A DNA stretch of 45,251 nt. It comes from Cryomorpha sp. (GTDB lineage Bacteria; Bacteroidota; Bacteroidia; Flavobacteriales_D; Cryomorphaceae). The position numbers and the translations under genes were made by a program. The notes under the pieces were generated by a model that worked only from the letters and a program-made list of their open reading frames with translations, was not told the DNA's origin and ran no database searches. Shown one piece after another: positions 8,715 to 43,846 of this stretch (positions are counted from its first letter, which is position 1; each line of letters starts with the position of its first letter). The stretch is taken from assembly GCA_041744015.1 (NCBI GenBank), contig JBGTLS010000079.1, forward strand, positions 1 through 45,251, in the 5' to 3' direction.

Positions 8715-8717
8715 GCC

Positions 8718-9398: not shown

Positions 9399-9417
9399 AG
9401 CCCACCGCATATCACAG

Positions 9418-16316: not shown

Positions 16317-16336
16317 AAGCAATAACGCTTTTCAAC

Positions 16337-17556: not shown

Positions 17557-17560
17557 TTTG

Positions 17561-27145: not shown

Positions 27146-28018
27146 TTAATTTCGTTTGCTAAAAAGATTTCGCAAGGGTGAAATATATGATTCGTGTGTG
27201 CCTATGGTCGCCAGATCCACTCCGGCGCGCTTACAGGCCTGTTTGGCAAACGACATCCGGTCATAAGCATTTTTCGCGTAAGTGAGCCGCACACTTTTAG
27301 AGCTGGTATTTACCCAACGCACCTCATTGGTTTCAGGATCGACAAATTGCACCAGTCCGAGATCGGGCATTTCGCGTTCCCGCTGATCGTATATCTGCAA
27401 GGCAACGAGGTCATGTTTTTTATTTGCCAACTTCAACGGATCTTCAAAATTCTGATCCATAAAATCGCTGATCAAAAAGGCAATGCTGCGTTTTTTGACC
27501 ACATTGTTTAAAAATCTGAGCGCATCGCCAATGTTGGTGCCCTGACTCTGTGGTTTGAATTCAATCAATTCACGGATAATCCGAAGAATATGTGATTTGC
27601 CTTTCTTGGGGGGAATGTATTTTTCTATCGTCTGACTGAAAAAGATGACTCCTATTTTGTCGTTGTTGGTAATGGCCGAAAATGCCAGAACGGCACAGAT
27701 TTCGGTTATAAGCCCTTTTTTGAGTTGATCCTGGGTTCCGAAACTGTCAGATTGAGAAATATCAACCACTAATATAACGGTGAGCTCCCGCTCTTCTTCA
27801 AATATCTTCACGTATGGATGGCCGAATCGCGCGGTGACATTCCAGTCAATCGTGCGCACCTCATCGCCTACTGCGTATTCGCGTACTTCGCTAAAAGCCA
27901 TACCACGCCCCTTGAACGCTGAGTGATACTCTCCGGAAAAAATCTGGTTGGAGAGACCTTTGGTCTTGAGTTCAATGCGTCTGACTTTCTTTAAAAGCTC
28001 TGCGGTATCCGTGGCCAT
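27146..28018 (-). CDS. DUF58 domain protein (MoxR partner)
   Basis: Motifs GEYHSAFKGRGMAFSEVREYAVGDEVRTIDW and VVDIS are typical of DUF58. Confidence 0.8.
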   Translation of the reverse strand: MATDTAELLKKVRRIELKTKGLSNQIFSGEYHSAFKGRGMAFSEVREYAVGDEVRTIDWNVTARFGHPYVKIFEEERELTVILVVDISQSDSFGTQDQLKKGLITEICAVLAFSAITNNDKIGVIFFSQTIEKYIPPKKGKSHILRIIRELIEFKPQSQGTNIGDALRFLNNVVKKRSIAFLISDFMDQNFEDPLKLANKKHDLVALQIYDQREREMPDLGLVQFVDPETNEVRWVNTSSKSVRLTYAKNAYDRMSFAKQACKRAGVDLATIGTHESYISPLRNLFSKRN

Positions 28019-28027
28019 AAATACTTG

Positions 28028-29077
28028 TCAGGGAACCTCTACGGTGTTTAAAACTTTATTAATCACATCTTCCACCTTTACATTTTCTGCTTCCGCTTCG
28101 TAAGTGAGGCCGATACGGTGGCGCATCACATCTGTCGCCACAGCGCGCACATCTTCAGGAATCACATAACCCCGGCGGTTAATAAAAGCATATGTTTTGG
28201 CAGCCATGGCCATGCTGATGCTGGCACGGGGAGAAGCACCAAAGCCAATCAATTCCTTGAGCTCTTTGAGTTTGTATGCTTCGGGCTGACGGGTGGCGTA
28301 AACCAGGTCAACGATATAGCGCTCGATCTTCTCATCCATATAAACCTCCCGAACCGTCTGGCGGGCCCGCAAAATATCGGCGGAGCTTACCACTGCGCGC
28401 GGAGTCGGATATGGCTGTGAGGAAACATTGCTTCTGATGATCAGGCTTTCCTCTTCGCGGAGCGGATAGTCGAGAACAACTTTCAACATAAACCGGTCTA
28501 CCTGTGCTTCGGGCAGGGGATAGGTTCCTTCCTGTTCGATGGGGTTCTGTGTGGCCAATACCATAAATGGCTCAGGCAACTTAAATGTTTCTCCGCCAAT
28601 GGTGACCTGCCGCTCCTGCATGGCTTCGAGCAGGGCACTCTGCACCTTAGCCGGGGCGCGGTTAATCTCATCAGCCAAAACGAAGTTGGCGAATATCGGT
28701 CCCCGCTTTACAGCGAAATCCTGGTTTTTCGGATTGTATATCATGGTACCCACCACATCGGCAGGAAGAAGGTCTGGCGTGAACTGTATCCTGCTGAAGT
28801 CAACATGGATGCAACCGGAAAGGGCTTTGATGGCCAGTGTTTTGGCAAGACCGGGAACACCCTCCAGCAGAATATGTCCATTGGCGAGCAAAGCGATCAG
28901 TAATTTTTCAACCATGTCTTTCTGGCCTACAATTACTTTTTCCATTTCTAAAGTCAACAATTCGATAAAGGCGCTTTCCTGCAATATCTTGGCATTCAGC
29001 GCTTTGATATCAACCTGCGAAGAAGGGGATACAGTCGATGTACCACTTGAAAAATCACCCGGTGTTTCTTGATTCAT
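28028..29077 (-). CDS. moxR: MoxR-family AAA+ ATPase
   Basis: Walker A (LEGVPGLAKT), Walker B (LADEINRA) and VLATQNP. Confidence 0.9.
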   Translation of the reverse strand: MNQETPGDFSSGTSTVSPSSQVDIKALNAKILQESAFIELLTLEMEKVIVGQKDMVEKLLIALLANGHILLEGVPGLAKTLAIKALSGCIHVDFSRIQFTPDLLPADVVGTMIYNPKNQDFAVKRGPIFANFVLADEINRAPAKVQSALLEAMQERQVTIGGETFKLPEPFMVLATQNPIEQEGTYPLPEAQVDRFMLKVVLDYPLREEESLIIRSNVSSQPYPTPRAVVSSADILRARQTVREVYMDEKIERYIVDLVYATRQPEAYKLKELKELIGFGASPRASISMAMAAKTYAFINRRGYVIPEDVRAVATDVMRHRIGLTYEAEAENVKVEDVINKVLNTVEVP

Positions 29078-29089: not shown

Positions 29090-29451
29090 CGGTTGAAGAA
29101 TGAGATTCTATCTCCTTTGGGAAGAAATGCATATCCTCATTTCTTATTAACCGCAAATGTGACAATATTGAGGTGGCATGTGGGGCAAGTTCCAGTTAAA
29201 AGATGTTAATCAAAAAATCGACGTAAATTATTGATTTTTCGCATATTTCATGGCGAAAATATCCATTTTCATTTGCTTAAATTAACATCGAAAAATAATT
29301 CTCCGGGAATATCCAAGGTGATAAATGTCATTCGTTTTTCAATAAATTAAAAAGCATGATCGGTGTGTAATGAACATTTTCAAATATCATGTTGATAATT
29401 CTCTCTCCCTCTCTCCACATTTATCCTTTATTTTCGATCTAAATCCATGAT

Positions 29452-29844: not shown

Positions 29845-30349
29845 TCTTACCAAAGCGCTCGAGGATGCGCGCACCAGCGCCTGGGCCATGCGCAAACTTA
29901 ATTTTATGCTTGCCGTTGGCATTCCTTTCAACAGGCCGCATGGAATTCGTGTACACGAGGTGGGAGATGATTCAGTGACCACAACCATTCCGTACAGAAG
30001 AAAAAATTTGAACCACATCAAGGGGATTCACGCCTGTGGTCTGGCGACAGCGGCTGAGTTTTGCAGCGGACTTGTACTTCTTCGCCGGTTGGGGTCCAAA
30101 AAATACCGGTTGATTATGCAGAAGATTGAGGTGGAATATACCTATCAGGCCAAATCTTCCGCTTTCGCCAAATTTGAACTTTCAGACAGCGTTTTCCAAA
30201 ATGAAATTTTGAAACCGCTGGAAGAAAATGGTCAGGTTTATTATCAATGCGCCATCCTGGTTCACGATACTGCCGGGAATTTGCTTTGCAAAGCATTTAC
30301 CAACTGGCAGATTAAACCGTGGGATCAGGTAAAAACCCGCGTAAGCTAA
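29834..30349 (+). CDS. Hotdog-fold protein (DUF4442/PaaI-thioesterase-like)
   Basis: 171 aa with an uncertain TTG start. IKGIHACGLATAAEFCSGL resembles DUF4442 members. Confidence 0.5.
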   Translation: MKVDLTKALEDARTSAWAMRKLNFMLAVGIPFNRPHGIRVHEVGDDSVTTTIPYRRKNLNHIKGIHACGLATAAEFCSGLVLLRRLGSKKYRLIMQKIEVEYTYQAKSSAFAKFELSDSVFQNEILKPLEENGQVYYQCAILVHDTAGNLLCKAFTNWQIKPWDQVKTRVS

Positions 30350-30396
30350 GTTCGCTTTTCCCAAAGATTTAAGACTCTGTTTTAACCAAATACTCC

Positions 30397-30981
30397 ATGA
30401 AAAAAAGAGATTATCCTGCGATATATCGGGTGATGCATTGGTCACTGGCTATTTCCATGCTCCTCCTCCTTATCACTATATTTCTGAGACTCACCTGGAT
30501 GGAAAAAGTTCACGTGGCGGGAATTATAGAGGGCTATCTTTCCGAAAATGAACAAAGCCTGACACAAGATCAGTTGATTGTCCTGGCCAAGAAAATCCGA
30601 AAACCCATGTGGGACTGGCATATCTATTTGGGTTATTTCATTACAGGGGTTTATGTAATTCGCCTTTCCCTCCCGTTTTTTGGACACATGAAATTTTCCA
30701 ATCCCACCCGGAAGGGGTTATCCCGAAAAGTAAAATTCCATTTCTGGACTTATATCATCTTTTATGCCTGCCTGGGTGTTTCCTTATTCACCGGATTGGT
30801 GATCGATTTCGGTCCGGCCGAATACAAGAAGTCAATGGAGACCATTCATAAGCTTTCCATCTATTATTTTGTAGCCTTCATCGTTATACATCTTTGTGGC
30901 GTCATCTGGGCCGAATTGACAAATCAAAAAGGGATTGTGTCAGGAATTATCAGTGGTGGTCAAAAAAAGGAAGAGGGATAA
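30397..30981 (+). CDS. Cytochrome b561-like membrane protein
   Basis: 194 aa with 4 TM helices. Conserved His positions (MHWSLA, WHIYLGY, IHKLS, IHLCG). Confidence 0.6.
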   Translation: MKKRDYPAIYRVMHWSLAISMLLLLITIFLRLTWMEKVHVAGIIEGYLSENEQSLTQDQLIVLAKKIRKPMWDWHIYLGYFITGVYVIRLSLPFFGHMKFSNPTRKGLSRKVKFHFWTYIIFYACLGVSLFTGLVIDFGPAEYKKSMETIHKLSIYYFVAFIVIHLCGVIWAELTNQKGIVSGIISGGQKKEEG

Positions 30982-31373
30982 CACTTCATTCACGGGAAGA
31001 AATTTCATTTTTTTTATTGGGAAGGCTTTGAGGTCATTTTTGAATAATTACCTTCATGCTTAAGTCTAACCAGGATTGAAAATTGAAAAATTCCCCGCTG
31101 TATGATTCCCCACCAATTTACACCGCCATCTCCGGACATTTATTCCGGTAACGTCAGACATCCCGACCTGCTGTGCTTTCAAATTTCTGAACGGCTGATT
31201 GCATTATGCCTGTCTAAAAATTATAGATCAAAACGGGTCTATTCTCCCTTTCGCGCTTTCCGATACATGTCATTATCTCAAAGCCTTTTACGACCTTTCA
31301 GATCAACCTGAATTTCGCTCAGCTTACTTCGCATACTTTTTTGACCGATCCAATCATCTTATAACCTCCCCCC

Positions 31374-34300
31374 ATGACCGAACTCATTTTTACTGGAAAA
31401 CTTGTCGATGACACAGCCCAGACAGAACAACTCAATGAACTGACATCCTTCGCGAAAATGGAAGTCTATATGGTTCTCCCATCCACCAGAAGTGATTCAA
31501 ATATGATTTCTGTACCTGTAAATGATGCAGAGGTTTTTGAGATTGAATACGACAATGGCATTGTTGATTTTCTCGACAGAGAACGCCTTGACGAACTCGC
31601 GCGCGATCCATCCTGGCGCGGACTGGAATTAATGTCTGACAGGGCGACCGGCGATCAGAAATACTACCTGAACGACGTCCTTTTTGTCGATAGCCCCGAA
31701 CGAGGTGTTGGCAATGTGGTACCCAAATTTATCCGTCGGTTTTTTGCTAAAAAGGCTGTGAGTGTCAGTGTGAAAATGATGGCGCAGCGGGTGGATGACA
31801 AGAATGTCATAGAGGAAGGTTTGTTTATCTGTTCACGGGATTCTGTCGCCCTTGTGGAAAAAATCAATGCCGGGAAAAAGCTGGAAGACAAACCTTACCT
31901 TTTGATGGTTCACGGGTTTGCTTCAAGTATTACCAGTTCTTTCGGCGCCATGAGTGAAATTGGAAATACCGGATGGCATGATATGCAGAAACTTTACGAA
32001 GGCCGGATTTTGGGATATAACCACCACTCCTTTACCAAAAGTGCCTTGCAAAATGCCTTTGAACTGCTTGAAGCAATGCCCAAAAATCTCACACTCGATG
32101 TATTGTCTTTCTCCCGGGGGGGGCTCGTAGCCGAAATTCTGGTAAAAGCTGCTGAAACTGATTATGACAATCCGGAAGAAGCGAAATTCTGGGAGGATGC
32201 CTTTGAAAGGTTTGAAGGCATGCCGGACCAGGATTATTTCAAAAGTCTCCCTGCGCTGATGCGAAAGAAAAATCTGAAAGTCAGAAATTTTGTGCGGAGC
32301 GCCTGTCCGGCCGGAGGTACCACCCTGGCTTCAGGCAGACTGGTGACTTACTTCAAGGTGGTGCTCAACGCCATCGGGATGATTCCTGCAGTGAAAGCTT
32401 TTCCTCCTTATCTGGCATTCAAGGATTTGATTTTAACGGTGATTCAACAAAAGGATGATCCGAAAACGCTTCCCGGGGTTGAGACCATGACACCAAATTC
32501 AAATTATGTCAAAGTCTTAAACGTACTCGGAAGTCAATATCCCATTACCCGCACCCCCTTGCATGTCGTGTCGGGCGATGTGAAATTTGGCAAGCTGCTT
32601 CATTCGATGAAGGTCATTTTGTCCGATGCTTTCTTTCTGGGCGATCACGATTTTGTGGTCAATACCATCAGCATGTATCAGGGATTTCGCCGGGCCTTTA
32701 GCATAGATGAATCGGGAGTGGTGCAGCCAGGTTTTCACAAATCATTTCACCAAAGCGGGGAGGTATCCCATTTCAATTACCTCCGAAATCCCGGCTCCAG
32801 GGAAGCCATTCTGTCAGCCCTCGGTCAGAAGGATGTGGACATGCACTTTGTATGGCACTTTTATGGCCAAAAAGACGAAGTCTACACCTTGCGTGCCCAC
32901 GATCCAAAACGCCCCACGGTCATATTGTTACCGGGCATCATGGGTTCGCATTTGAAACTCGGCAAAAAGCGCATATGGCTCAACTTTACTGAACTGATGT
33001 TTGGAGGCATGGGCAAATTGACACCGGAGTCTACGCAGGTTGCTGCAGATGGAGCCATTGGATTGTTTTACAACAAGATGGTGAATTACCTCTCGCGCTC
33101 CCACAATGTTGTCGTTCATGGATTCGATTGGCGCTCCGATATGATGACGTCGGCTGACGAGCTGAAAAAAGTGGTGGAAGATGCCATGAAAAACACCACC
33201 GGACCAGTGCGCATTGTGGCACATTCCATGGGTGGGCTACTTACCCACGCGCTGTATTCAAAACACCCCGATATATGGGATCGCATGCGTCAACGTCCGG
33301 GTTTTCGCGCCCTTTTTATGGGTACACCTTTCCGCGGCTCGCACGCCATTGTCAACCTTTACCTGAAGCGTCACAGCACTTTCAATCTCCTTCACAAAAT
33401 TGATGTGCTGAACAACAGCGATGAAATGCTCACCATTGTGAACCGTTTTGTTGGCATGTTGCAATTATTGCCCCGCGAAGAAAAGTTTTTTGAAATGCCC
33501 TTCTGGGAACAAATGCGTATCGCATCAGGCAAAGGTGAAGAGTTTACAATTCCGGATGAAGCGTCTTTAAAAGTGGCAAAACAGGTTTTACAGGTATTCA
33601 ATGCCAAACCCATTGAGGGCAAAGAGCTCATCTACTTGGCAGGTCTTGATCCGGGACTGACGCCCCACAGGGTTGAAGTCAACACACACTTAAAAGCCAT
33701 CAAGGTATTCGGTACTGTAGAAGGCGATGGGGCCGTGACATGGGCTTCGGGAATCCTTCCCGTTTTTGAAGATCGCGTGTATTACTCGCGCATCACGCAC
33801 CAATCGCTTTGCAACAAACGCGCAATTTTCGGCGCGGTGCTCGATTTGCTGGAAAAGGGAGAAACGAAAAGCAACGAACTCAGTAAGTTTCCGGTAAAAT
33901 CGCGCGCAGCGCAACTCGAATACGAAATGCCGGAAATGGCGCCAGTAAGTCTCACCGTAAACAATGCCTACGACCTGCTTGGCCTTGAAGAAGATGATAC
34001 GGATAGCCAACTGCGCAAGCCGGGACAACCGATCCATGTGAAGATCAATCACGGAGATCTGGGATTTGCCAGTTATCCAGTCATAGTCGGACATTTTGAA
34101 GGAAACGATATTCTCGATGCAGAAGCCGCTATCGACAGGCATCTGAATGGGGAGTTGTCCCGACAATTGGAACTCGGTGCTTATCCCGGAAAAATTGGAG
34201 ACTCACTCGTGGTTTTGAATAATAAAGGATATTTCAAAGGTGCGGTGATAGCGGGTTTGGGATTCAATGATCGACTTACTGAACTCGAGTTGGAAAAAAC

Positions 34301-36755
34301 CCTGACCAAAGCCCTGGTGGAACTGGCTTTACAAGGTGACCGCAACACTTCGGAAAGGTCGCGCGAAACCAGGGTTTATGGGATCTCTCCGCTGCTTGTC
34401 GGCAGTTCTTATGGAGGATTGGATGTGACCAGTTCGTTACGTGCCCTGCTGCGCGCCATCATTCGCACCAACGATATGCTGGCGGAGTCGACTTTCAAAG
34501 AGCTTCGTCTATTCGTGGTAGTTGAAATCATTGAACTCTATCTCGACAAAGCCATTGACATCAACAGGGCCCTGATCAGAATGGCCAATGAGAGTGAATT
34601 CAGGGACAGGATCGTTTCCGAAAAAGTGGTGGTCGATGGAACCGGCGGACATACCCGACTCCTGGACAGCGTGAGGGCATCCTGGTGGCACCGACTGCAG
34701 ATTGTGGAAGAAGTTAAATATACCCGCATTGCCAGTGACAATGACGAAAACACCGTGAAAGCCCGCGAACAGCGCTACATGAAGTTTGTCTCCCTCTCAG
34801 AAAGGGCGCGTGCTGAAGTGGAATCTCACGATCTGGACAAGGCTCTGCTCCACGTCATGCTGGCTCAGTCTGTCGGCCGTACGGACAATGATCCCCTGCT
34901 TTCCAAAGCCTTATTTGAGTTGTTGATTCCATATGAATTCAAAGGATTTGTGGACGATATGCGGAACATTACCCTGATTCTGGACGACAAAACGGCTGAA
35001 TATCCATGGGAAATGCTCAGTCATTCACTCGATCCGAACGATCCGCCCATGGCTACACGCACAGGGTTGATTCGACAATTGCACGATGCATATTACCGCG
35101 CCAACGTATTTTATGCCCAGGAACAAAGAGCGCTTGTTATTGGTGATCCCATCTGTTCCGATCCTTTCCGACCGCTCGATTTCGCAAAAGTCGAAGCCCA
35201 GGAAGTGATGAAATTGCTGGCCAATGATTTTGGCGCGACCGTGGAACATTCCATCAATGAAGATGCGGCCAGTGTCCTGAAAAAGCTGGTGAAAGATCAG
35301 TACAAAATCATCCACCTCGCCGGGCACGGGGCTTTCGATCCGGAAAACGTGACGCGCAGTGGTCTCGTACTCAGTGACAACGTATTTCTCAACCCGACAG
35401 TAATTGGCAATCTGAGTTGGGTGCCGGAATTTGTCTTTATCAATTGCTGTCATCTCGGGGCCGTAGAAACAGGTGGATCAAAACAACCGTGGAACAAACT
35501 GGCAGCCAATCTGGGAACACAGTATATTAGAATCGGCGTAAAAGCCGTAATCGCAGCCGGATGGGCGGTTGACGACAGGGCTGCGCTCGATTTTGCCAAA
35601 GTGTTCTATGCCTCCCTTTTCAATGGCGACGATTTCGGCACTGCCGTCCAAATCGCCAGAGACCACTGTTTCAGGAATTTTCCGCACAGCAATACATGGG
35701 GAGCATACCAATGTTATGGCAATCCGCATTACAGGCTGAAAAGAAAGGACAATATCGCAAGGCGCAACGAAAACACGTATGTTCATAAGGCAGAATTGCT
35801 CACCCAACTACGCAATATCACTGCGCAGGTGGATTCATACAGTCAGCGCGACCTTGAGCGGCTTTGCGGCCTGATCGACGGGTATCTCGAGCAGGGGTCT
35901 CAATGGAATTCGGATTGTGATGTGGTTGAATTGGCTGCACAGGCTTATTTCGAATTGCGCAATTCTGAAAAAGCCATGGAGATGTACCGTGACGTGATTG
36001 CTAAAAAACCCCACGAGGTATCCTACCGCTCGCGCAGCAATTACATGAAGTTGCTCATCAACCGATCAGTGCAACTGGTCAGAGCCGGCGGTTGTGATGA
36101 CACGGAGATCGAAGGTTATATTAATGAAGCAGACCAGCAGGTTCGGCTATTTTTGAAATCCGGAGGCAAAAGCGAAGTGCTCACAGAAATAGGAGGCCAT
36201 TTCAAGCGATTGGTCAAACTGGCCAAAACAAAAGCCAAAACACTCGAATATTTACTGGAATCGGCACGGTATTACCATGAGGCTTTTGAACTGGGAGAGC
36301 GGCAATCGCTTTACGCCCTCACCAACTTCCTCCAGATGGCTGCCCTGTATGACATGAAGAGTGGGGGCAAAACAACAAAAAAATTGCCCTATGAATTTAC
36401 ACCTGCCATTGCCAAAAAATTGGTGGCTCACGGACAGGAATTGCTCACTTCCGTGAAAAATGGGGTGCCCGATTTCTGGACCACGCTCTTCGAGGCGGAT
36501 TTACTTATAGCCGAAGTTCTGGCCATTCCCACCCTCAAAATTGCCGGTATTGAATCACGGATTCGGGAAGCAGTTGAAATAATAGAAAATACATGGAACA
36601 GAAGTGGTTCCTGGCGAAAACTTGAAGTGATCAGAGATCATTATGGTTTCCTGCTGCGCGGTTTGGACAAGGTCAGCTCTTCCGGCAACAGCAGGCAGGC
36701 AGCCGTGCACAAGGGATTGCAGCATCTCTGCGAAAAAATTGAAGCTCTGCAATAG
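31374..36755 (+). CDS. 1,793-aa multidomain protein: two lipase-like alpha/beta hydrolases, an unassigned core, a CHAT protease and a helical-repeat tail
   Basis: Single uninterrupted ORF with ATG at 31374. Domain motifs are listed in the sub-features below. No signal peptide and no TM helix. Confidence 0.9.
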   Translation: MTELIFTGKLVDDTAQTEQLNELTSFAKMEVYMVLPSTRSDSNMISVPVNDAEVFEIEYDNGIVDFLDRERLDELARDPSWRGLELMSDRATGDQKYYLNDVLFVDSPERGVGNVVPKFIRRFFAKKAVSVSVKMMAQRVDDKNVIEEGLFICSRDSVALVEKINAGKKLEDKPYLLMVHGFASSITSSFGAMSEIGNTGWHDMQKLYEGRILGYNHHSFTKSALQNAFELLEAMPKNLTLDVLSFSRGGLVAEILVKAAETDYDNPEEAKFWEDAFERFEGMPDQDYFKSLPALMRKKNLKVRNFVRSACPAGGTTLASGRLVTYFKVVLNAIGMIPAVKAFPPYLAFKDLILTVIQQKDDPKTLPGVETMTPNSNYVKVLNVLGSQYPITRTPLHVVSGDVKFGKLLHSMKVILSDAFFLGDHDFVVNTISMYQGFRRAFSIDESGVVQPGFHKSFHQSGEVSHFNYLRNPGSREAILSALGQKDVDMHFVWHFYGQKDEVYTLRAHDPKRPTVILLPGIMGSHLKLGKKRIWLNFTELMFGGMGKLTPESTQVAADGAIGLFYNKMVNYLSRSHNVVVHGFDWRSDMMTSADELKKVVEDAMKNTTGPVRIVAHSMGGLLTHALYSKHPDIWDRMRQRPGFRALFMGTPFRGSHAIVNLYLKRHSTFNLLHKIDVLNNSDEMLTIVNRFVGMLQLLPREEKFFEMPFWEQMRIASGKGEEFTIPDEASLKVAKQVLQVFNAKPIEGKELIYLAGLDPGLTPHRVEVNTHLKAIKVFGTVEGDGAVTWASGILPVFEDRVYYSRITHQSLCNKRAIFGAVLDLLEKGETKSNELSKFPVKSRAAQLEYEMPEMAPVSLTVNNAYDLLGLEEDDTDSQLRKPGQPIHVKINHGDLGFASYPVIVGHFEGNDILDAEAAIDRHLNGELSRQLELGAYPGKIGDSLVVLNNKGYFKGAVIAGLGFNDRLTELELEKTLTKALVELALQGDRNTSERSRETRVYGISPLLVGSSYGGLDVTSSLRALLRAIIRTNDMLAESTFKELRLFVVVEIIELYLDKAIDINRALIRMANESEFRDRIVSEKVVVDGTGGHTRLLDSVRASWWHRLQIVEEVKYTRIASDNDENTVKAREQRYMKFVSLSERARAEVESHDLDKALLHVMLAQSVGRTDNDPLLSKALFELLIPYEFKGFVDDMRNITLILDDKTAEYPWEMLSHSLDPNDPPMATRTGLIRQLHDAYYRANVFYAQEQRALVIGDPICSDPFRPLDFAKVEAQEVMKLLANDFGATVEHSINEDAASVLKKLVKDQYKIIHLAGHGAFDPENVTRSGLVLSDNVFLNPTVIGNLSWVPEFVFINCCHLGAVETGGSKQPWNKLAANLGTQYIRIGVKAVIAAGWAVDDRAALDFAKVFYASLFNGDDFGTAVQIARDHCFRNFPHSNTWGAYQCYGNPHYRLKRKDNIARRNENTYVHKAELLTQLRNITAQVDSYSQRDLERLCGLIDGYLEQGSQWNSDCDVVELAAQAYFELRNSEKAMEMYRDVIAKKPHEVSYRSRSNYMKLLINRSVQLVRAGGCDDTEIEGYINEADQQVRLFLKSGGKSEVLTEIGGHFKRLVKLAKTKAKTLEYLLESARYYHEAFELGERQSLYALTNFLQMAALYDMKSGGKTTKKLPYEFTPAIAKKLVAHGQELLTSVKNGVPDFWTTLFEADLLIAEVLAIPTLKIAGIESRIREAVEIIENTWNRSGSWRKLEVIRDHYGFLLRGLDKVSSSGNSRQAAVHKGLQHLCEKIEALQ
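31887..32813 (+). other. Domain: alpha/beta-hydrolase module 1 (aa ~172-480)
   Basis: PYLLMVHGF strand. Nucleophile elbow SFSRGG (Ser247 codon at 32112-32114). SACPAGGTTLAS. Candidate acid and base residues in FLGDHDFVV and SHFNYL. Confidence 0.6.
32910..33863 (+). other. Domain: alpha/beta-hydrolase module 2, LCAT/PGAP1-like (aa ~513-830)
   Basis: VILLPGIMGS. HGFDWR. Canonical GxSxG as AHSMGG (Ser618 codon at 33225-33227). GTPFRGS. Candidate Asp in EGDGAV and His in THQSL. Confidence 0.7.
34959..35732 (+). other. Domain: CHAT (caspase-like His-Cys protease; aa ~1196-1453)
   Basis: LILDDKTAEYPWEML entry motif. IIHLAGHG (His1318 codon at 35325-35327). FVFINCCHLG (Cys1358 codon at 35445-35447). 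VIAAGWAV. Confidence 0.75.
35781..36752 (+). other. Domain: C-terminal helical (TPR-like) repeat region (aa ~1470-1793)
   Basis: Helix-rich sequence with TPR-like pairs (AAQAYFELRNSEKAMEMYRDVI, ARYYHEAFELGE). Assigned by eye. Confidence 0.4.
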
Positions 36756-37008: not shown

Positions 37009-38445
37009 CTAAAACCACCTTTGCAGGAATGCTTTCCCGTTGTTGATGAATAGCCGGTCGATGATTTCCTCCTGATTGATTTGGTTCATAGGTAGGAGGG
37101 ACTGGCCGCCGTTTTTCATGTAGTTGTTGGCGTGCATGAGCATGTAGGTTTCGAGGTGGGGGAAATATTCTGACGACCAGAATCCGTTGAGCGGATCGAC
37201 GATGCCATCGAAGTCTGTTCCCAGCGCCTGAATATCCCATGCAAAAAGTCCGTGGGCGTTGAGCACCTCGGCGATGTGTTGCACCTGCGCCCAAAGCAAC
37301 CGCGACCTGTAAAACCGCATTTTGCGAACGCTCAACCGCGTGCCTGCATTTTTTAGCTCAGTTTCACTTGCAATGCGGCGTTCATCCACCTGCAAGCCGA
37401 ATATGCCATGTGATTGAGCTATGCGAACGATTTCGTCATCGTAAAAATTGATATCCGGATTGTAAAACCGATGCGCTGAGCCAGGGATTGTTTCGGCGCC
37501 TGATTCGTCCCTCAGACCCGTAACTGCGCCATGGCTGACAATGATTGGGATTGGTACAGTCTTATATTCCGTATCCAACAGGTTGAAGTATGCTTTCCGG
37601 CTGGTGCGGCTGAAGTGTTTGATGTCCACATAAATCGGTTTTCCATTTTCGGAAGAAAGCAGTTTGTGAATCACTTTCTTTCCAAGTTCCGTGATGCCGG
37701 CATTCAATCCCAAATCCTGGGTCAACACCCGGCTGGTGAGGGCATCCAGACTTTTGGCGTGACCTGCCAGTTCATTGTAAAAGTGGTGGGCAACGGTGAC
37801 AAAAAATACGCGGTGTTTCCATTTTTTTAGTTCATCGACATGTCTTAAAACCACTTTTTCATCCGCCGGTTGGTCCAGTCCACAATCCAGTACATGCAGG
37901 CCTTCAATGGACAGAAACACGCCGATTCTGTTGACGGCTGAATCGTGGTTCAGGGCTTCCAGTTCATCAAATGAATTGATGAGGTGGTAGCTGTATTTTT
38001 CCTTGTCGATGGTGTAAACCCGCCCGTCGAGCTGTTTGAGAAAATCGTATTCACGCTCCAGATCCTGCCAGTAACTTTGGTATTTCTGAATGTGGTCAAT
38101 GCGCATTCTGCCGATTCCGGTGACAAGGTTGGTGACGATGTCAGCCAACTTTCCGGTTTGGCCAAGGGGTTTAAAAAATCCTTTTTCGGGTGGGTAGAGT
38201 GAAACGGAGATACATATGGCGCCACCCTTCGCAAGTGTCGTAAAGTCAGCCTGCCGGAATTTGGTCAACCCTGAAATGTAGTTGATCAATTTGTCCGTAA
38301 CCTTTGGCGGATCGTAGTACCAGATGGAATGTTTTTGTTGGCGGTTGGCGCTGTTTTCCATGGCTGGAAAACTTGTGCCATAGGGCTTCATGGTGGGGTG
38401 GCAATGGAAGTCTATGAAGGTTCTTCTTTCGATGTTGTCGCGCAT
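37009..38445 (-). CDS. Amidohydrolase-fold protein resembling membrane dipeptidase (peptidase M19-like)
   Basis: The probable start is ATG 38445; the track uses TTG 38529. The motif series IDFHCH, SIEGLH, VTVAHHFYN, VDIKHFS and IVSHGAV parallels the metal-ligand strands of M19/amidohydrolase enzymes. Confidence 0.5.
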   Translation of the reverse strand: MRDNIERRTFIDFHCHPTMKPYGTSFPAMENSANRQQKHSIWYYDPPKVTDKLINYISGLTKFRQADFTTLAKGGAICISVSLYPPEKGFFKPLGQTGKLADIVTNLVTGIGRMRIDHIQKYQSYWQDLEREYDFLKQLDGRVYTIDKEKYSYHLINSFDELEALNHDSAVNRIGVFLSIEGLHVLDCGLDQPADEKVVLRHVDELKKWKHRVFFVTVAHHFYNELAGHAKSLDALTSRVLTQDLGLNAGITELGKKVIHKLLSSENGKPIYVDIKHFSRTSRKAYFNLLDTEYKTVPIPIIVSHGAVTGLRDESGAETIPGSAHRFYNPDINFYDDEIVRIAQSHGIFGLQVDERRIASETELKNAGTRLSVRKMRFYRSRLLWAQVQHIAEVLNAHGLFAWDIQALGTDFDGIVDPLNGFWSSEYFPHLETYMLMHANNYMKNGGQSLLPMNQINQEEIIDRLFINNGKAFLQRWF

Positions 38446-38528
38446 GGGGAGGGTGGTTTTGGTTAGGGTTTTACTGACAAGGTTCGAATTGTCAATGATT
38501 AAATGTATGGGAATATATTCAATAGGCA

Positions 38529-38537
38529 ATATGCAAT
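38529..38537. repeat. Target-site duplication, left (ATATGCAAT)
   Basis: An identical 9-mer lies at 39934-39942, immediately outside the IRs. Confidence 0.75.
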
Positions 38538-39933
38538 CAGTACTGTCCGGTTAAAGTTGGGAATAAATAAAAAAGAGAGACCGAAACGACCTCCCTTTTC
38601 TGATTATTTTTGAGTTACGACACAAAAAAATAGTCATGAGCAAAAGTAAATATTTTACCGGACAGCCGATCTTCAGCCAGCTGCTTTCTTATCTGCCACA
38701 AGGAAGGATTAATTCACTTGCAGCTGAACACGATGCCGACAGGTACTATAAAGAGTTCAGAACATATACCCATTTGGTAACGATGCTTTATGGTATTTTT
38801 AATCGATGTACAGGCCTGCGTGAAGTAACCACAGGGCTATTGGCCTGGGAGCATCGTATTCAGCATCTAGGCCTTAATTATTATCCCAAAAGAAGCACTA
38901 TTTCTGATGCGAATGTGAACCGGGCATCAGACGTATTTGAATCAGTCTACTATTGGTTATTCAATAGATATCAGTATTTTTTACCGGACAGCCGAAGTAA
39001 AAACGCCTCACGATTTTATATTGTTGATTCCACAACCATCCAGTTGTTTCAAGAAGTTCTTAAGAATGCAGGACGAAAGTCTGTAGATGGTAAAAGAAAA
39101 GGAGGAATTAAAGTTCATACCTTAATCAGAAGTGATCAGGATGTTCCTTGTTTAATACGTTATTCCGCAGGCGCAGGCGCCGATAGTCCCTTTTTGAAGG
39201 ATATTCATTTACCGGAAGGTTCTATTTTGGTATTTGATCGTGGTTATTATGATTACAAACAATACAATCGGTTTTCAACCCAAAAGATTACCTGGGTAAC
39301 CCGGTTAAGAAAGGATACTGTATATACTGTACTCGATGAAAAAAGCGTTTCGGAAACGGAAAAGTCAAAAGGAGTCATATCAGATCAGGGTGTCGTGCTG
39401 GGACATAATTTACACAAGAACAACACGCGTGTGGTGGCTCGCTTAATTAAATTTCAAGACCCTCAAACTAAGGAACAACTTGAGTTTATTACAAACAGTA
39501 AGCGATTTAACGCATCCACAATAACGCTGTTTTATAAGAAGCGCTGGCAGATTGAATCACTCTTCAAGCGAATCAAGCAAAATTATCCCTTAAGAAGCTT
39601 TCTTGGCGAGAGCGAAAATGCAATCAAAATTCAAATTTGGTGTGCTCTGATTGCAGACCTACTTCTTAAGCTTGTTAAAGCAAAAGCTGGTAAGTCCTGG
39701 TCTTTCTCAAACCTCGCCGCGATGGTTAGACTACATCTAATGACCTATATTAATCTTTTCGAGTTCCTGAAAAATCCTGAAAAAGCATTAATCAAAAATC
39801 AAAATAAATCCGAACAATTGTACCTGTTTCCAACATAGGGGGCTTAGATCTCCAATTTCAAAACTCATACTCAGATTTTACTCATAGTTCCGAAGTTAAA
39901 TCATCTGGTTTCAGATTTAACCGGACAGCACTG
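38538..39933 (+). mobile_element. Intact IS4-family insertion sequence (1,396 bp)
   Basis: IRL is cagtactgtccggttaaa (38538-38555). IRR reverse-complements to cagtgctgtccggttaaa (39916-39933), a 17/18 match. Single transposase ORF. 9-bp TSD. Confidence 0.85.
38636..39838 (+). CDS. IS4-family DDE transposase
   Basis: 400 aa. Has the Y-(2)-R-(3)-E-(6)-K signature (YKKRWQIESLFKRIK) and DDE-like segments (YIVDSTTI, LVFDRGYYD). Confidence 0.9.
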   Translation: MSKSKYFTGQPIFSQLLSYLPQGRINSLAAEHDADRYYKEFRTYTHLVTMLYGIFNRCTGLREVTTGLLAWEHRIQHLGLNYYPKRSTISDANVNRASDVFESVYYWLFNRYQYFLPDSRSKNASRFYIVDSTTIQLFQEVLKNAGRKSVDGKRKGGIKVHTLIRSDQDVPCLIRYSAGAGADSPFLKDIHLPEGSILVFDRGYYDYKQYNRFSTQKITWVTRLRKDTVYTVLDEKSVSETEKSKGVISDQGVVLGHNLHKNNTRVVARLIKFQDPQTKEQLEFITNSKRFNASTITLFYKKRWQIESLFKRIKQNYPLRSFLGESENAIKIQIWCALIADLLLKLVKAKAGKSWSFSNLAAMVRLHLMTYINLFEFLKNPEKALIKNQNKSEQLYLFPT

Positions 39934-39942
39934 ATATGCAAT
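39934..39942. repeat. Target-site duplication, right (ATATGCAAT)
   Basis: Matches 38529-38537. Confidence 0.75.
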
Positions 39943-40032
39943 TGGCAATTTCAAACTGGCAATTACCTCCCTGTGGTCCAGACGGACTCCTTGCAGTAGT
40001 CGGTGAGCTCAATCGTTCTTCGGTTGGCAATC
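39943..40032. repeat. ATTGCC-rich dispersed repeat element, copy 2 (inverted; split by the IS, other part at 38521-38537)
   Basis: Contains gtcggtgagct (39999-40009) and tcggttggcaat (40020-40031). These are exact reverse complements of strings in copy 1. Confidence 0.6.
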
Positions 40033-40274: not shown

Positions 40275-43043
40275 TCACCTTGTCACCACCAATTTATCTG
40301 TAAACAGCTCGTCTCCACAAGTTGCTCTAACTACATAAACGCCTGGAGCAAGGTTACTTATATCCATTTGGTATATCAATTGTCCGCCGGATGATTCCTG
40401 AATTAAAGACCTGCCGGACGCATCGAAAATTCCAATCCGATCAATGCCTGTACCTTTCGATTGAAGGGTAATTTCGGAACGGGCAGGGTTGGGGTAGAGC
40501 GTGAGTGTAGACGACGTAGCTTTCGCAGATGCAATTTGTTCACGCATTTCCAATTCATGTACGCGATCTGAAATGCGTTGCATGAGCGGTCTTGTTGCAA
40601 AGTTTCCCTGATAGGGTTCAGGTGTTGACAGTAGGCAAAAATCCTCCACGTACCCGGTGCTTGCAGGCTCCCCAAATTCCGCCAAGGGGTCGTCAATAAT
40701 CCGCAATCGGCCATTGGGCCTTAAATGTGCACCTGGTAACAGTCTGATTTGAGTTCGCGCATCAATTCCGTAGTGTTGATTGCCATGCGAAGCAGTCAAC
40801 GTATTAATTTTCACTTTATCTGCAATTACACTGCTATAGGGACCATCATTTCCGTTGATATAAGCAACCCAATCACCCAAAGTGATTGCGTTGAAGTGAA
40901 TAGCCTCTGGAGCTGAAAGAACTGAAGCGACGGTAACCACGCCTGACTCTTCAAAACTCGAAACTGTCGGATCATGTTTCCAAACCAAATATGTGAAGGC
41001 CTGGGTTACATTGTTCTGTTGATTGCGGGAATTGGTTTGATCGAAAAACATGTCGACCAAGAGTTTCATCTCAATCTTTTCCAACTTCAAGTCCATGTTA
41101 TTGGAAGAGTAAGCTGCTGCAAATGTCGGATTGCTTGTAGAACCTATCGACGTTGTAATGAGATTGCTTTTGTAAACGCTTCCAAAAGCGTCTCCGGCAG
41201 ATCTCCAATCAGATTCAACAATCAGCTTATTTTCACACAAACTGTATGGATCTGCGCATGGTCTGAACCAATGGGCTAAAAACATATTAGGACTTTGTAT
41301 TTCTCTGCTTATTATTTCCAACATGTCATATTTTGTCCCCATACCAGAATAGGTAAAAATGAAGGCCACATCAACGGTTGTTGATTCATGATCAAAGTCG
41401 AGCGCAGGATTGAAAGAGAATATTAGAGGCTCTGCGAGCTTTATCGCAGTGTGGTTTGTTGTAATGCTTTCAAAGGCCATTATATTCGAAGGTGGGATGT
41501 CAGGCAGGAATATGTCACTGGTGTACAGACAATTCATATCACCGGAGTGAACACACTGATACCAGGATTCGCTAAATTCCTGTTCCATTTGAACTTTGGG
41601 CTTCTCTAAAAGCGCAAACTGACCCAGCACTTCATTGTAGGCAGGATAGTTGAAAGGCGTGAGTCCAGGCTGGCCCGAACCATAACTCGAGGGAAATGTG
41701 CCCGGCATATAGAACGGTCCCATAACATCAATATACGTGGATCCGATCGTTCCCTTAAATGCCGTTTCTGTGTAAGTGGCAGTCGGAGTTGTCGGTTTTA
41801 CCGGTTTGTCAAATGTTTTAGGAAGAATTTCCATTGCCGCGAAATCCATTCCCTTGGCCAGCAGCTTCTTGAAATCTTTTGAATCTTCGCTTTTCGGATT
41901 ACCGCCCACTGAAGGCATATAGAGATTGATTAAAGTCTCACCCGCATCCAAACCTAATCGGATCAGTTGATTTCCCAAGCTGTTGTAATCGTTCATTTCC
42001 TGGTCGTATTTATCCAGTTTTGTCTTGTATTGATCAATCATGTCTTCCATACTTCGGTAAATCATGCTTCCAGGCTTGTATTCTGTGGGATTTATTTCAC
42101 TCAAGTTCATAAAATCGTTCATCGTGTAATTGTTCTCATCAATTTCCTGGGTTGCGCTGATTTCCCTGCCGATCATTTCAATATTCATAGAGTTGAATTG
42201 CCAAAATTCGATATCGAACTTACCTTGAGAAATGCATGAGCACGGGTCATAGGCCATTTGGAAATCAGCTACCATCCATTGATTGGACAAGACCGTCTGA
42301 AACCTGGGTGAAGTGTTTTCGAATATATTTGTTTGCATGCTTAGCGGCCTATCGTAGTTTTCTATGGCGCGCAAAATACCGGTAAGGTTTCCATTACCAC
42401 CACTTTGTAGTAGCTTCACTTGCAGATTTTGGTGCTTGATCCTGTTGTCCCACACATTGGCTACCAACCGCATGATGCCCCGATATCGGTTGTAAATGAT
42501 GATGTAAGGTATGTTATCGGGTTTTGCACTGTAATTGTTGCCCTGAAAAGGACTACCAGTGGCGTGTGGGCCACCTATGGAAGTGCCGTCAGGCAGGTAT
42601 CCCAGGTTCATCCAAAGCAGCTCCCATCCATCTTCCCAATGATAGTCTCTGTCTGTAATGAAGGCATTAGTTTGAGGCTCCTTCAAATAATTAAACTGGC
42701 TTGGCATATCATCACTCATGAAACTAATCATGGGGTAGTACAGTGGACAAGGGTCACCTGGATTTGCCAGCACGATGCTGTTGTCAAATTCCCAATAAGT
42801 ACAAAGGTCGATTCCAATGGTTTTAAAATCGGCTCCGGCTATTTCACCCCAGTTAAATGCATTAAGGAAGGGATTGATGGTAAAGGGTTGTTCCGGATCT
42901 GAAAGATTCACAATATTGTTGAGCAGGAAAGGATCAAGTGGTGCGTTGGGGTTGGTGCTGATGCCGGCAGGAGGGCATGGCTGACCATAGGCGGCTGCAA
43001 GTACTGAAACCAATAACATGCATAGGGAATATAGCTTTTTCAT
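40275..43043 (-). CDS. 922-aa secreted protein with a type A T9SS C-terminal sorting domain
   Basis: Signal peptide. The C-terminal ~80 aa (LTLYPNPARSEITLQSKG ... APGVYVVRATCGDELFTDKLVV) fits the Por/T9SS CTD. The body is unassigned. Confidence 0.8.
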   Translation of the reverse strand: MKKLYSLCMLLVSVLAAAYGQPCPPAGISTNPNAPLDPFLLNNIVNLSDPEQPFTINPFLNAFNWGEIAGADFKTIGIDLCTYWEFDNSIVLANPGDPCPLYYPMISFMSDDMPSQFNYLKEPQTNAFITDRDYHWEDGWELLWMNLGYLPDGTSIGGPHATGSPFQGNNYSAKPDNIPYIIIYNRYRGIMRLVANVWDNRIKHQNLQVKLLQSGGNGNLTGILRAIENYDRPLSMQTNIFENTSPRFQTVLSNQWMVADFQMAYDPCSCISQGKFDIEFWQFNSMNIEMIGREISATQEIDENNYTMNDFMNLSEINPTEYKPGSMIYRSMEDMIDQYKTKLDKYDQEMNDYNSLGNQLIRLGLDAGETLINLYMPSVGGNPKSEDSKDFKKLLAKGMDFAAMEILPKTFDKPVKPTTPTATYTETAFKGTIGSTYIDVMGPFYMPGTFPSSYGSGQPGLTPFNYPAYNEVLGQFALLEKPKVQMEQEFSESWYQCVHSGDMNCLYTSDIFLPDIPPSNIMAFESITTNHTAIKLAEPLIFSFNPALDFDHESTTVDVAFIFTYSGMGTKYDMLEIISREIQSPNMFLAHWFRPCADPYSLCENKLIVESDWRSAGDAFGSVYKSNLITTSIGSTSNPTFAAAYSSNNMDLKLEKIEMKLLVDMFFDQTNSRNQQNNVTQAFTYLVWKHDPTVSSFEESGVVTVASVLSAPEAIHFNAITLGDWVAYINGNDGPYSSVIADKVKINTLTASHGNQHYGIDARTQIRLLPGAHLRPNGRLRIIDDPLAEFGEPASTGYVEDFCLLSTPEPYQGNFATRPLMQRISDRVHELEMREQIASAKATSSTLTLYPNPARSEITLQSKGTGIDRIGIFDASGRSLIQESSGGQLIYQMDISNLAPGVYVVRATCGDELFTDKLVVTR

Positions 43044-43045
43044 GG

Positions 43046-43846
43046 TCAGTTAATTTTTATTCCGTTAAATTGAAAATCATTGCCCTGTAAAATATACCAG
43101 TAATCAAAAATGATTTCGCCGGAATTGTTGACCAGATATATACCACGTGGATCACCGGAGCCAGAACTAGCCCCTCCAACAGACACCTTTTTGTTTGTAG
43201 GATAATGTGTGAAATAATCAGCCACCTCCCCGGTATTGTGAAAGTTTACGTACCTGAAATCAACCGTCTCATAAACGCTGTAAGCAGTATCGCCATTCTC
43301 ATTGATAGGGTATACGGACCATTCGTACTCCTCACTGCCATTGTGCCTGCCCCGAAAGGTACCTATGGAGGCAAATTCAAAATAACTCCCTACAAGTCGG
43401 AAGGTCACCGCTACTGAGTCGTGACCGGTGTCATTGGGCTTGCACGGGTCCAGTTCATCATAGGTCACCACATGGCTCACCATAATATTGGAAGGATATG
43501 GCTCATTCGCAAAATTGCGCACAAACGAGGCTTCATCGATTATTTGAGATCCCAAATACCAGGTATGCGAAGTGACCTGACCCGGATAAAGTGCGTCAAA
43601 GTACAATATGGGAAAATCGGGACCAAACATGGTGTCAGCGAAAAACTGCCAGCCTTCCCAGGTTGAAACCCTGGTGGAAATCGTAAAGTCAGCCTTGTTA
43701 ATAGGTCCTCCGTGACAAGGATCATAATTCGGGCACTCGACATTTGTCGGATTGTCGCAAAGTGCATCATCATCTTTTTTACAGGCATATACCAGAAGCA
43801 CCGAGGAGACGATGATCGCTATCGATAAATTGAAGTGATGTTTCAT
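43046..43846 (-). CDS. Lipoprotein, function unknown
   Basis: 266 aa. Lipobox LLVYAC. 2-nt gaps to both neighbouring genes. Confidence 0.65.
   Translation of the reverse strand: MKHHFNLSIAIIVSSVLLVYACKKDDDALCDNPTNVECPNYDPCHGGPINKADFTISTRVSTWEGWQFFADTMFGPDFPILYFDALYPGQVTSHTWYLGSQIIDEASFVRNFANEPYPSNIMVSHVVTYDELDPCKPNDTGHDSVAVTFRLVGSYFEFASIGTFRGRHNGSEEYEWSVYPINENGDTAYSVYETVDFRYVNFHNTGEVADYFTHYPTNKKVSVGGASSGSGDPRGIYLVNNSGEIIFDYWYILQGNDFQFNGIKIN

Follow-up and report, generated by a model that had tools for sequence, protein, structure and literature searches.

A 1,793-residue protein of Cryomorpha sp. joining two lipase-like hydrolases, a Macro-fold domain, a caspase-like CHAT protease and a TPR-S tail: a candidate proteolysis-gated conflict effector

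The subject of this work is a single giant gene of Cryomorpha sp. (Bacteroidota; assembly GCA_041744015.1), carried by contig JBGTLS010000079.1, of which positions 1 to 45,251 of the forward strand were analysed as a whole and are referred to here as the window. The gene occupies positions 31374..36755 of the plus strand, starts with ATG and encodes 1,793 amino acids (aa) without an internal stop. Since this length is beyond chance at 45-50% G+C and more than 70 full-length homologues were found, the open reading frame (ORF) is considered a real gene, its ATG start being supported by the alignment of Met1 and Gly8 across the homologues. An earlier interpretation made from the letters alone, called here the sequence-only reading, had described one uninterrupted ORF with neither signal peptide nor transmembrane helix. 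The ORF was borne out, and no hydrophobic segment was found at the N-terminus by a simple hydropathy test, the only test applied, whose maximum (a 19-residue Kyte-Doolittle mean of 1.63 at aa 1708) falls within the helical tail; the predicted product thus fits a soluble, cytoplasmic, non-membrane protein. A scan for sigma-70 promoters and terminators around the gene returned background level only. The features of the gene are given below in window coordinates, the fractions being counts in an alignment of 63 full-length homologues at about 30% identity.

31374..31868, plus strand: N-terminal beta-rich domain, aa 1-165, from an AlphaFold2 (AF2) model; candidate pro-domain of hydrolase 1
31488-31490, plus strand: Arg39, kept in 62/63, next residue Gly, Ala or Ser in 47/63, else mostly Asp; in a loop
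31617-31619, plus strand: Arg82, kept in 60/63, next residue Gly, Ala or Ser in 47/63, else mostly Asp
31701-31703, plus strand: Arg110, kept in 59/63, next residue Gly or Ser in 60/63; in a loop
31869..32828, plus strand: hydrolase 1, aa 166-485, lipase-like alpha/beta hydrolase (Pfam DUF7379, PF24096)
32112-32114, plus strand: nucleophile Ser247 of hydrolase 1, in SFSRGG; Ser247-Arg-Gly-Gly invariant (63/63)
32649-32651, plus strand: Asp426 of hydrolase 1, in DHDFVVNT; invariant
32769-32771, plus strand: His466 of hydrolase 1; invariant
32829..32912, plus strand: linker 1, aa 486-513, variable stretch between the hydrolases; candidate cleavage site
32892-32894, plus strand: Arg507, kept in 53/63, next residue Gly, Ala or Ser in 46/63 (Gly, Ala, Asn and Ser are seen)
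32913..33869, plus strand: hydrolase 2, aa 514-832, LCAT/LPLA2 family, phospholipase A or acyltransferase type (Pfam LCAT, PF02450)
33225-33227, plus strand: Ser618 of hydrolase 2, in AHSMGG; 61/63
33726-33728, plus strand: Asp785 of hydrolase 2, in EGDGAV; 63/63
33798-33800, plus strand: His809 of hydrolase 2, in THQSL; 63/63
33870..34028, plus strand: linker 2, aa 833-885, variable, before the Macro-fold domain; candidate cleavage site
33903-33905, plus strand: Arg844, kept in 61/63, next residue Gly, Ala or Ser in 58/63; preceded by Pro-Pro-x-x
34029..34598, plus strand: Macro-fold domain, aa 886-1075 (Pfam Peptidase_M17_N; AF2 and Foldseek)
34599..34901, plus strand: connector, aa 1076-1176, long beta-hairpin sheet and helices (AF2), with a variable insertion at about 1100-1140 (gap profile)
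34902..35732, plus strand: CHAT caspase-fold protease, aa 1177-1453 (Pfam CHAT, PF12770)
35325-35327, plus strand: His1318 of CHAT, in HLAGHG; 63/63
35448-35450, plus strand: Cys1359 of CHAT, in INCCHLG, probable nucleophile; 63/63
35733..36755, plus strand: TPR-S helical-repeat tail, aa 1454-1793, and the stop codon (Pfam TPR-S, PF20308)

By curated thresholds, the protein belongs to the CHAT, DUF7379, LCAT-like and TPR-S families, and the conservation across the alignment indicates that the active sites of both hydrolases and of CHAT are under strong purifying selection family-wide. Hydrolase 1 scored 101 bits against DUF7379 (cut-off 33), and an invariant pair, His180-Gly181, is placed at its oxyanion position. 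In the family profile, the elbow (AHSRGG) and the aspartate motif (DNDLVVNT) align with AHSQGG and ENDGIVNT of family I.5 lipases and with the putative lipase 7x2p, and the top Foldseek matches were Geobacillus and Staphylococcus lipases (E ~1e-7). A profile search with this domain returned only fragments of the same giant-protein family, and no paper on DUF7379 or on the architecture of the giant protein was found in a literature search. Hydrolase 2 scored 30.6 bits against LCAT (cut-off 21), its family profile retrieving LPLA2 (E 2.4e-12) and LCAT (E 3e-10) from the PDB. Its likeness to these two proteins (PDB 4x90, 4xx1) extends from the profile to the AHSMG elbow and the GDG aspartate, which aligns with the GDG(T)V aspartate of LPLA2; in fact, Ser618 and Asp785 align with the catalytic serine and aspartate of LPLA2 (AHSMG and GDGT motifs). 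His809 was aligned by HMMER to a non-catalytic histidine of LPLA2, so its catalytic role is deduced from its invariance and its position after the aspartate. Unlike LCAT and LPLA2, then, hydrolase 2 has an ambiguous histidine alignment, and it is bacterial, cytoplasmic and part of a multidomain chain. The sequence-only reading had placed an alpha/beta hydrolase at aa ~172-480 with Ser247 and an LCAT/PGAP1-like one at aa ~513-830 with Ser618, proposing the EGDGAV aspartate and the THQSL histidine as its partners; these assignments hold, the histidine as a putative member of the triad.

The same reading had found no nameable motif at aa ~885-1195, which no longer applies to aa 886-1075. This core matches Peptidase_M17_N above the Pfam cut-off (E 6e-6), and its family profile retrieves the N-domain of the leucyl aminopeptidase 3jru from the PDB (E 4.5e-4). 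The AF2 model of the core/CHAT region (mean predicted local distance difference test score, pLDDT, 85) was compared by Foldseek with known structures, the core matching TTHA0132 (TM-score TMt 0.74), macroH2A (0.66), YmdB (0.65) and leucyl aminopeptidase N-domains, with a range of 0.65-0.77. On this modelled fold, the core is a Macro-fold domain whose nearest relatives in sequence are the N-terminal domains of M17 leucyl aminopeptidases; its conserved positions are Gly906-His907, Glu917, Tyr937-Pro938, Gly961-Leu-Gly963, a Gly-rich loop at about 1010 and Glu1054, and it could serve as a second sensor.

The CHAT domain was matched by Pfam over residues 1177-1450 (E 2.6e-24, 86.6 bits against a cut-off of 24), covering profile positions 4-289 of 289. 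Its best structural match was Csx29 (E 3e-10), followed by DdvA, separase, gingipain R and SAVED-CHAT. The domain and its invariant histidine stand as the sequence-only reading had given them, but the cysteine named there, Cys1358 (kept in 62/63), adjoins Cys1359, and the alignment with SAVED-CHAT (8tl0) puts His1318 and Cys1359 on its dyad H375/C422, so Cys1359 is probably the nucleophile. For the tail, described earlier as helical and repeat-like from aa ~1470 to 1793, this character was confirmed: TPR-S was matched with 29.5 bits by the tail on its own (cut-off 27.6) and with 25.8 bits when the entire protein was scanned, the same family is matched by 38 of 42 relatives, and the tail family profile matches TPR proteins in the PDB. 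The tail is presumed to be a sensor or regulatory module.

The N-terminal domain (aa 1-165) has neither a Pfam nor a PDB sequence match. Alignment columns of the first 170 residues average 18% identity, with conservation confined to Met1, Gly8, Arg39, Arg82 and Arg110. AF2 modelling of aa 1-510 (pLDDT 83; predicted TM-score, pTM, 0.82) has this domain packed on hydrolase 1, the loop of Arg110 (residues 109-111) having a pLDDT below 50. The same low confidence is seen for residues 489-510, where Arg507 lies, but these also form the end of the modelled construct, and for residues 860-880 of linker 2, Arg844 itself falling in a stretch outside the AF2 models. Among positions conserved in at least 80% of the homologues within variable surroundings, arginine is enriched (7/26 versus 11/220, Fisher p = 9e-4, a post hoc comparison). 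The N-terminal arginine sites, moreover, persist in variants of the family that have a single hydrolase.

These sites can be compared with published work. The coupling of the two enzyme types was first noticed by computation: in the ternary conflict systems built on MoxR and vWA, an alpha/beta-hydrolase gene always accompanies the caspase domain (Kaur et al. 2020, PMC7159879), and autopeptidase activation by constant caspase domains has been proposed (Kaur et al. 2021, PMC8195603). In a 2025 preprint, LcCaspase of Lysobacter capsici was reported to cleave its partner LcHydrolase at Arg73 and Arg117, both of them R|G sites conserved in 161 homologues; the cleaved hydrolase kills E. coli, the exact junctions being required, and its closest homology is to lipases, with the substrate unknown (Evans et al. 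2025, PMC12642450). The pairing of an alpha/beta hydrolase with a caspase having thus been published, the giant protein is less unprecedented than the sequence-only reading held. Of the known systems, this is the one that the giant protein would most resemble in its working. As in the Lysobacter pair, genetic coupling links a caspase-fold cysteine protease with an alpha/beta hydrolase of lipase-like type, the hydrolase has conserved sites of Arg-Gly type within it or on its N-terminal side, a repeat-type sensor is joined to the protease and a cell-killing effector role is predicted. Unlike that pair, the giant protein is one chain that also contains a second hydrolase, of LCAT/LPLA2 type, as well as a Macro-fold domain and a TPR-S tail, and it has three N-terminal arginine sites instead of two, plus the linker sites. 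The five conserved sites in which arginine is followed by a small residue match, by analogy, the R|G cleavage logic of the two-gene zymogen. The fusion of hydrolase and caspase-like protease is conserved in more than 60 homologues, and in the literature searched no description was found of the single chain, of a second lipase of LCAT type, of the Macro-fold domain, of the TPR-S tail or of the facultative C14 and TIR partners described below.

The interpretation that we favour, and to which we give about an even chance of being right, is that the giant protein is a fused effector of biological conflict, made up of a sensor, a caspase-like protease and latent lipases, and working through anti-phage abortive infection or a similar regulated cell death. 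In the resting state, both lipases would be held inactive, the N-terminal domain acting on hydrolase 1 like a pro-domain. CHAT would be switched on, probably via oligomerisation, by analogy with other CHAT proteases, once the TPR-S tail, and possibly also the Macro-fold domain, senses a trigger. CHAT would then cut after Arg39, Arg82 and Arg110 and, in the two-hydrolase form, also after Arg507 and Arg844, while in some relatives a partner C14 caspase may join it in a cascade. Cleavage would activate the lipase-like hydrolase and the LCAT/LPLA2-like phospholipase, whereupon membrane lipids would be degraded and the cell killed or arrested. The analysis itself establishes what the domains are, that the catalytic residues and the arginine sites are conserved, that the family is modular, and how it is distributed and in which contexts; for the trigger, for cleavage, for the lipid substrate and for the phenotype, the scheme is an inference.

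Full-length co-linear homologues measure 1,700-1,930 aa, share about 30% identity and are annotated at source only as 'CHAT domain-containing protein'. Their hosts include Bacteroidota, Nitrospirota, Acidobacteriota, Alpha-, Beta- and Gammaproteobacteria, Rhodothermales, Mycolicibacterium and Heliomicrobium, several of them being filamentous or floc-forming (Thiothrix, Chitinophaga, Accumulibacter, Competibacter), and the family, horizontally scattered, is spread patchily over eight or more phyla. When 1.84 billion representatives (50% identity clusters) were searched with the Macro-fold core, 1,330 of them matched at E<=1e-3 and 1,029 at E<=1e-10. From lengths and match positions, three architectures were distinguished, with two hydrolases (about 1,750-1,930 aa), with DUF7379 only (about 1,300-1,500 aa, e.g. 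P0055 and P0061) and without hydrolase (about 915-970 aa), and therefore the Macro-fold, CHAT and TPR-S domains are regarded as the constant part of the family and the lipases as add-on effectors. The short relatives of about 950 aa were also considered as general evidence of split genes, an explanation that was rejected: P0201 is truncated by a contig end, although P0219 (locus L086) is a genuine stand-alone Macro-CHAT-TPR-S gene. A more distant family, with the order DUF7362-DUF7379-TCAD7-DUF7363-CHAT, connects DUF7379 with the conflict systems of 'ternary complex' type described by Kaur et al.

Some further relatives were observed in the course of these searches. The hydrolase region of a distant relative, P0073, is matched by 485 stand-alone DUF7362-DUF7379 proteins of about 530-660 aa (P0348-P0467 among them), with no named Lysobacter entry among the 485. 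One such gene (L090, 7001-8737) belongs to a series of five genes on one strand that Pfam does not match with confidence, and no protease could be recognised nearby. A plasmid of Qingshengfaniella alkalisoli (L089, 4848-7370) encodes an 840-aa trypsin-like peptidase with an LCAT-like N-terminal part, 24.5% identical to aa 513-849 of the giant protein, that is, another class of protease with the same type of lipase. In Niabella hibiscisoli (L049, 9884-14786), a homologue is split into several ORFs, the longest of 521 aa, which reflects either a pseudogene or frameshift errors of long-read sequencing.

The surroundings of the relatives were surveyed in 45 genome loci, with 147 nearest neighbours scanned with Pfam. 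No universal neighbour and no conserved housekeeping or metabolic operon was found in these loci, so that the embedding in housekeeping operons which the sequence-only reading had named as evidence against itself was not seen. The commonest neighbour families were Peptidase_C14 (8), TIR_2 (5), TPR-S (2) and CD225 (2), the PADLOC 'caspase' model matching five neighbours. In L011 (Azotobacter chroococcum DSM 2286), L016, L017 and L037, a C14 caspase gene precedes the giant gene on the same strand at a distance of 14-38 nucleotides (nt), and in L043 one overlaps the start of the giant gene, the C14-bearing loci including Azotobacter, Competibacter and Mycolicibacterium. In all, a C14 gene adjoins the CHAT protein in about 15-20% of the sampled relatives, an adjacency which suggests a two-protease cascade. 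TIR genes adjoin five or six relatives. In L001 and L006 the TIR gene lies upstream and is divergent, in Aquimarina (L004) it follows on the same strand after 4 nt, in Spirosoma (L010) there is a weak match 7 nt upstream, and an LRR-Roc-COR-TIR protein of 1,118 aa ends 63 nt upstream, on the same strand, of a 49%-identical relative (L084); the arrangements in L004 and L084 are operonic. A search for further TIR neighbours with jackhmmer and hhalign yielded only two near-identical ones. On a rough estimate, TIR and C14 each make up well under 1% of bacterial genes, and by this rough measure their recurrence would therefore be far above chance. The L084 locus (1-9938) also holds a Tc/ABC-toxin gene of more than 2,900 aa beside the homologue.

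Plasmids carry the family as well, with a match in 11 plasmid records, which in nine cases extends over a large part or most of the protein. On a mobilizable plasmid of Azotobacter chroococcum, genes for type I restriction-modification, Fic, PD-(D/E)XK and a recombinase stand on one side of the homologue and three insertion sequence (IS) elements on the other. Among 50,697 phage records there was no match, and a phage origin of the gene was rejected for this reason. On a Paracoccus yeei plasmid (L088, 4436-7720), the homologue is preceded on its own strand by a 1,094-aa 'transporter substrate-binding domain-containing protein', which ends 37 nt upstream and may be a partner or sensor. The context of the relatives is conflict-like rather than that of a housekeeping operon. 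The sequence-only reading had called for homologues to be examined for enrichment in defence islands or beside mobile elements; plasmid copies and restriction-modification, IS and C14/TIR neighbours were seen, with few neighbours of defence type in the 45 loci. Its picture of a self-contained, single-gene system does not hold as a general rule, since about a quarter to a third of the sampled relatives have an adjacent C14 or TIR gene.

Several known systems share parts with the giant protein. SAVED-CHAT from type III-B CRISPR-Cas in Haliangium ochraceum (PDB 8tl0) activates a second caspase, PCaspase, in a cascade; it has the same His/Cys dyad by alignment and a ligand-sensing domain fused to CHAT, and a C14 neighbour is found in some relatives of the giant protein, which nevertheless lacks SAVED and CRISPR or CBASS genes, carries its lipases in cis and has Macro-fold and TPR-S domains as presumed sensors. 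Csx29 of type III-E Craspase likewise combines TPR and CHAT, but its TPR is N-terminal where TPR-S is C-terminal here, sequence identity is about 12%, and neither a Cas7-11 partner nor Csx30/31 substrates accompany the giant gene. In Thoeris, a Macro domain senses a histidine-ADP-ribose conjugate (His-ADPR; type II) and a cyclic ADP-ribose (N7-cADPR; type IV) activates a caspase-like protease; the effector described here has both a Macro-fold domain and a caspase-like protease, with TIR genes beside the five or six relatives mentioned, but there is no TIR near the window gene, the Macro fold is of M17_N type with putative ligand binding, and the output would probably be lipolysis. Unlike the MoxR-vWA-VMAP ternary systems, the giant gene has no linked MoxR, vWA or VMAP partners. 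The partners or full-length matches that define Borvo, Craspase, Thoeris and the MoxR-vWA-VMAP systems are absent, and for this reason the protein belongs to none of them.

In the window, small genes for a MazG-like protein, a DUF4442 thioesterase and cytochrome b561 lie upstream of the giant gene, and an M19 dipeptidase gene (37009-38529) is convergent with it. The locus is syntenic with that of a relative having 89% protein and 81% DNA identity (L083), which carries an extra PIN_3 toxin-antitoxin-like insertion between the MoxR and MazG-like genes (L083 709-1623; window 29250-29370) but no cytochrome b561 gene (window 30337-31009); on account of this synteny, the giant gene is regarded as chromosomal and vertically kept in this lineage. 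A complete Bat-type operon, typical of Bacteroidota, runs from 20651 to 29077 on the minus strand (MoxR AAA+, DUF58, DUF4381/BatD-like, two vWA of BatA/BatB-like type, TPR, BatD and TPR-SH3), its MoxR gene being 2.3 kb upstream of the giant gene and on the opposite strand. Neither MoxR nor vWA turns up repeatedly beside the relatives, so a functional link with the Bat operon was rejected and its proximity is ascribed to coincidence. The scanned ORFs of the window included no gasdermin, STAND NTPase or cas gene and the window no CRISPR array or CRISPR-like repeats, in agreement with the sequence-only reading, which had noted no partner NTPase, CRISPR locus or gasdermin nearby, and an association with CRISPR or gasdermin was discarded. 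No TIR was found among the scanned ORFs either, several ORFs below 185 aa being outside the scan.

Other observations in the window concern mobile and foreign DNA. An apparently intact IS4-like element (38521-39950) with 35-nt imperfect inverted repeats, 77% complementary, is located 1.8 kb downstream of the giant gene; its DDE transposase with a DUF4372 N-domain occupies 38636-39838, and there is an overlap between its left repeat and the region in which the M19 dipeptidase ORF starts with TTG. At 7491-7671, a TATTGCCAATTGCA-type unit is present in short copies, some in tandem and some dispersed, which resemble the IS terminal repeat at 38521-38555 (AATAGGCAATATGCAAT) and may be an IS-end remnant. 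They stand at the edge of a segment (1-7000) with a low GC content (0.35-0.40 versus 0.43-0.50 elsewhere) and minus-strand ORFs mostly without annotation, which contains a NERD nuclease-related gene (4136-4771) and may be a foreign island. A RES-Xre toxin-antitoxin pair, in which an Xre/MbcA/ParS-type antitoxin (16208-16888) overlaps a RES-domain toxin (16852-17355), lies directly beside tRNA-Pro(TGG) (17560-17634) on the other strand. Finally, a 922-aa protein encoded at 40275-43043 on the minus strand has the C-terminal sorting domain of the type IX secretion system (T9SS) as its sole Pfam match, and Pfam matches neither of the two upstream ORFs (43046-43846 and 43849-44769) that share its operon direction.

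Returning to the fused sensor-protease-lipase effector, a number of results weigh against it. The giant gene stands at a conserved chromosomal position without defence-gene neighbours in the window, and PADLOC found few defence-type neighbours in the 45 loci. With the giant protein itself, PADLOC matched BovA only (residues 1277-1428 against profile positions 512-662 of 711, E 1.4e-6); Borvo is also a single-gene CHAT system, but only about 150 of the 711 positions are covered, on the CHAT part, and the rest of the architecture is unrelated, so that the earlier remark that no named defence system could be recognised still applies. The likeness of hydrolase 1 to LcHydrolase rests on the published description and not on a sequence alignment. 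Moreover, the hydrolase-less members imply a role of the protease independent of lipases, Arg82 sits at a predicted strand start and not in a loop in the AF2 model, and the conserved arginines could have structural or ligand-binding roles instead. The linker arginine, in addition, is not conserved in single-hydrolase variants, which means that 'release' of the lipases by linker cleavage is not general. The idea of the sequence-only reading that the protease controls or releases the lipases survives in its first half, for which the conserved Arg-Gly/Ser/Ala sites give indirect support and the two-gene zymogen pair an experimental precedent; as a means of activation, cleavage within the N-terminal domain accounts for the data better than linker release does.

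Some of these points lend themselves to other explanations. The protease could itself be the executioner, or act only on other proteins (the C14 caspase or host targets), the hydrolases then being constitutively competent co-effectors or membrane-targeting parts and the arginines structural. The stand-alone gene P0219, the absence of the linker arginine from single-hydrolase variants and the C14 partners, which suggest a cascade like that from SAVED-CHAT to PCaspase, are in its favour. We nevertheless consider it rather improbable, as an unregulated cytoplasmic phospholipase would be expected to be toxic, the three arginines stand out as the conserved residues of the N-terminal domain and are kept in single-hydrolase variants, and there is a direct precedent for hydrolase zymogens cleaved at R|G. 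Much weaker is the case for a function outside conflict, whether housekeeping or developmental remodelling of lipids or membranes under proteolytic control or an exported toxin against other cells. The stable site among ordinary genes in the window and in the 81%-identical relative, together with the filamentous or floc-forming habit of several hosts, would suit it, but the lack of a conserved metabolic operon, the patchy spread over eight or more phyla with plasmid copies, and the CHAT, TPR-S and TIR/C14 complement typical of conflict systems make it very unlikely. Nor does the protein have a signal peptide, a T9SS C-terminal domain, a PAAR/Rhs-type trafficking domain or a conserved immunity-like neighbour, and a secreted toxin, or one of the type VI or type IX secretion systems, was rejected on the grounds of the missing sorting signal and immunity-like neighbour.

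A different trigger defines the remaining possibility, which is a variant of the favoured model and overlaps with it: the Macro-fold domain would be the primary sensor of an ADP-ribose-derived signal, made by a TIR protein that is a neighbour in some genomes and in others is absent or encoded at another place, and would activate CHAT, with TPR-S only regulating or scaffolding. The fold itself (TMt 0.65-0.77 to ADP-ribose-binding Macro domains), the conserved Gly-rich loop and GLG motif, the TIR genes adjoining L001, L006, L004, L084 and, weakly, L010, and the published pairings of Thoeris (His-ADPR with Macro in type II, N7-cADPR with a caspase-like protease in type IV) all point in this direction. 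Against it, the nearest sequence relatives are the N-domains of M17 aminopeptidases, for which we know of no report of ADP-ribose binding, most loci, the window included, have no nearby TIR gene, and the TIR protein could equally be a substrate or co-effector; we therefore hold it to be possible but doubtful. In its fullest form, it would make the giant protein an undescribed class of immune effector, in which a Macro-fold receptor for a TIR-made, ADP-ribose-derived messenger is joined to a caspase-like protease and two phospholipase zymogens, and the ligand would lead to self-processing after arginines and to membrane lipolysis, a proposal which we put forward with even greater reserve.

Should the favoured reading of a fused sensor-protease-lipase effector be correct, the family would offer a compact, one-gene, proteolysis-gated effector whose sensor, protease and two lipid-attacking zymogens could be separated by point mutation, and the class of substrate of caspase-associated hydrolases would be identified as membrane lipid. 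It would, in addition, allow M17_N-type Macro folds to be tested as signal receptors. If the more far-reaching TIR-messenger proposal were true, TIR signalling, caspase-type proteolysis and lipase executioners, used separately in plant and animal immunity, would be linked in bacteria. The facultative C14 and TIR partners, for their part, represent natural experiments on how such modules join cascades. With about 1,000 clusters (50% identity) in many phyla, the family is a large one, which would fit current thinking on prokaryotic immunity rather than overturn it.

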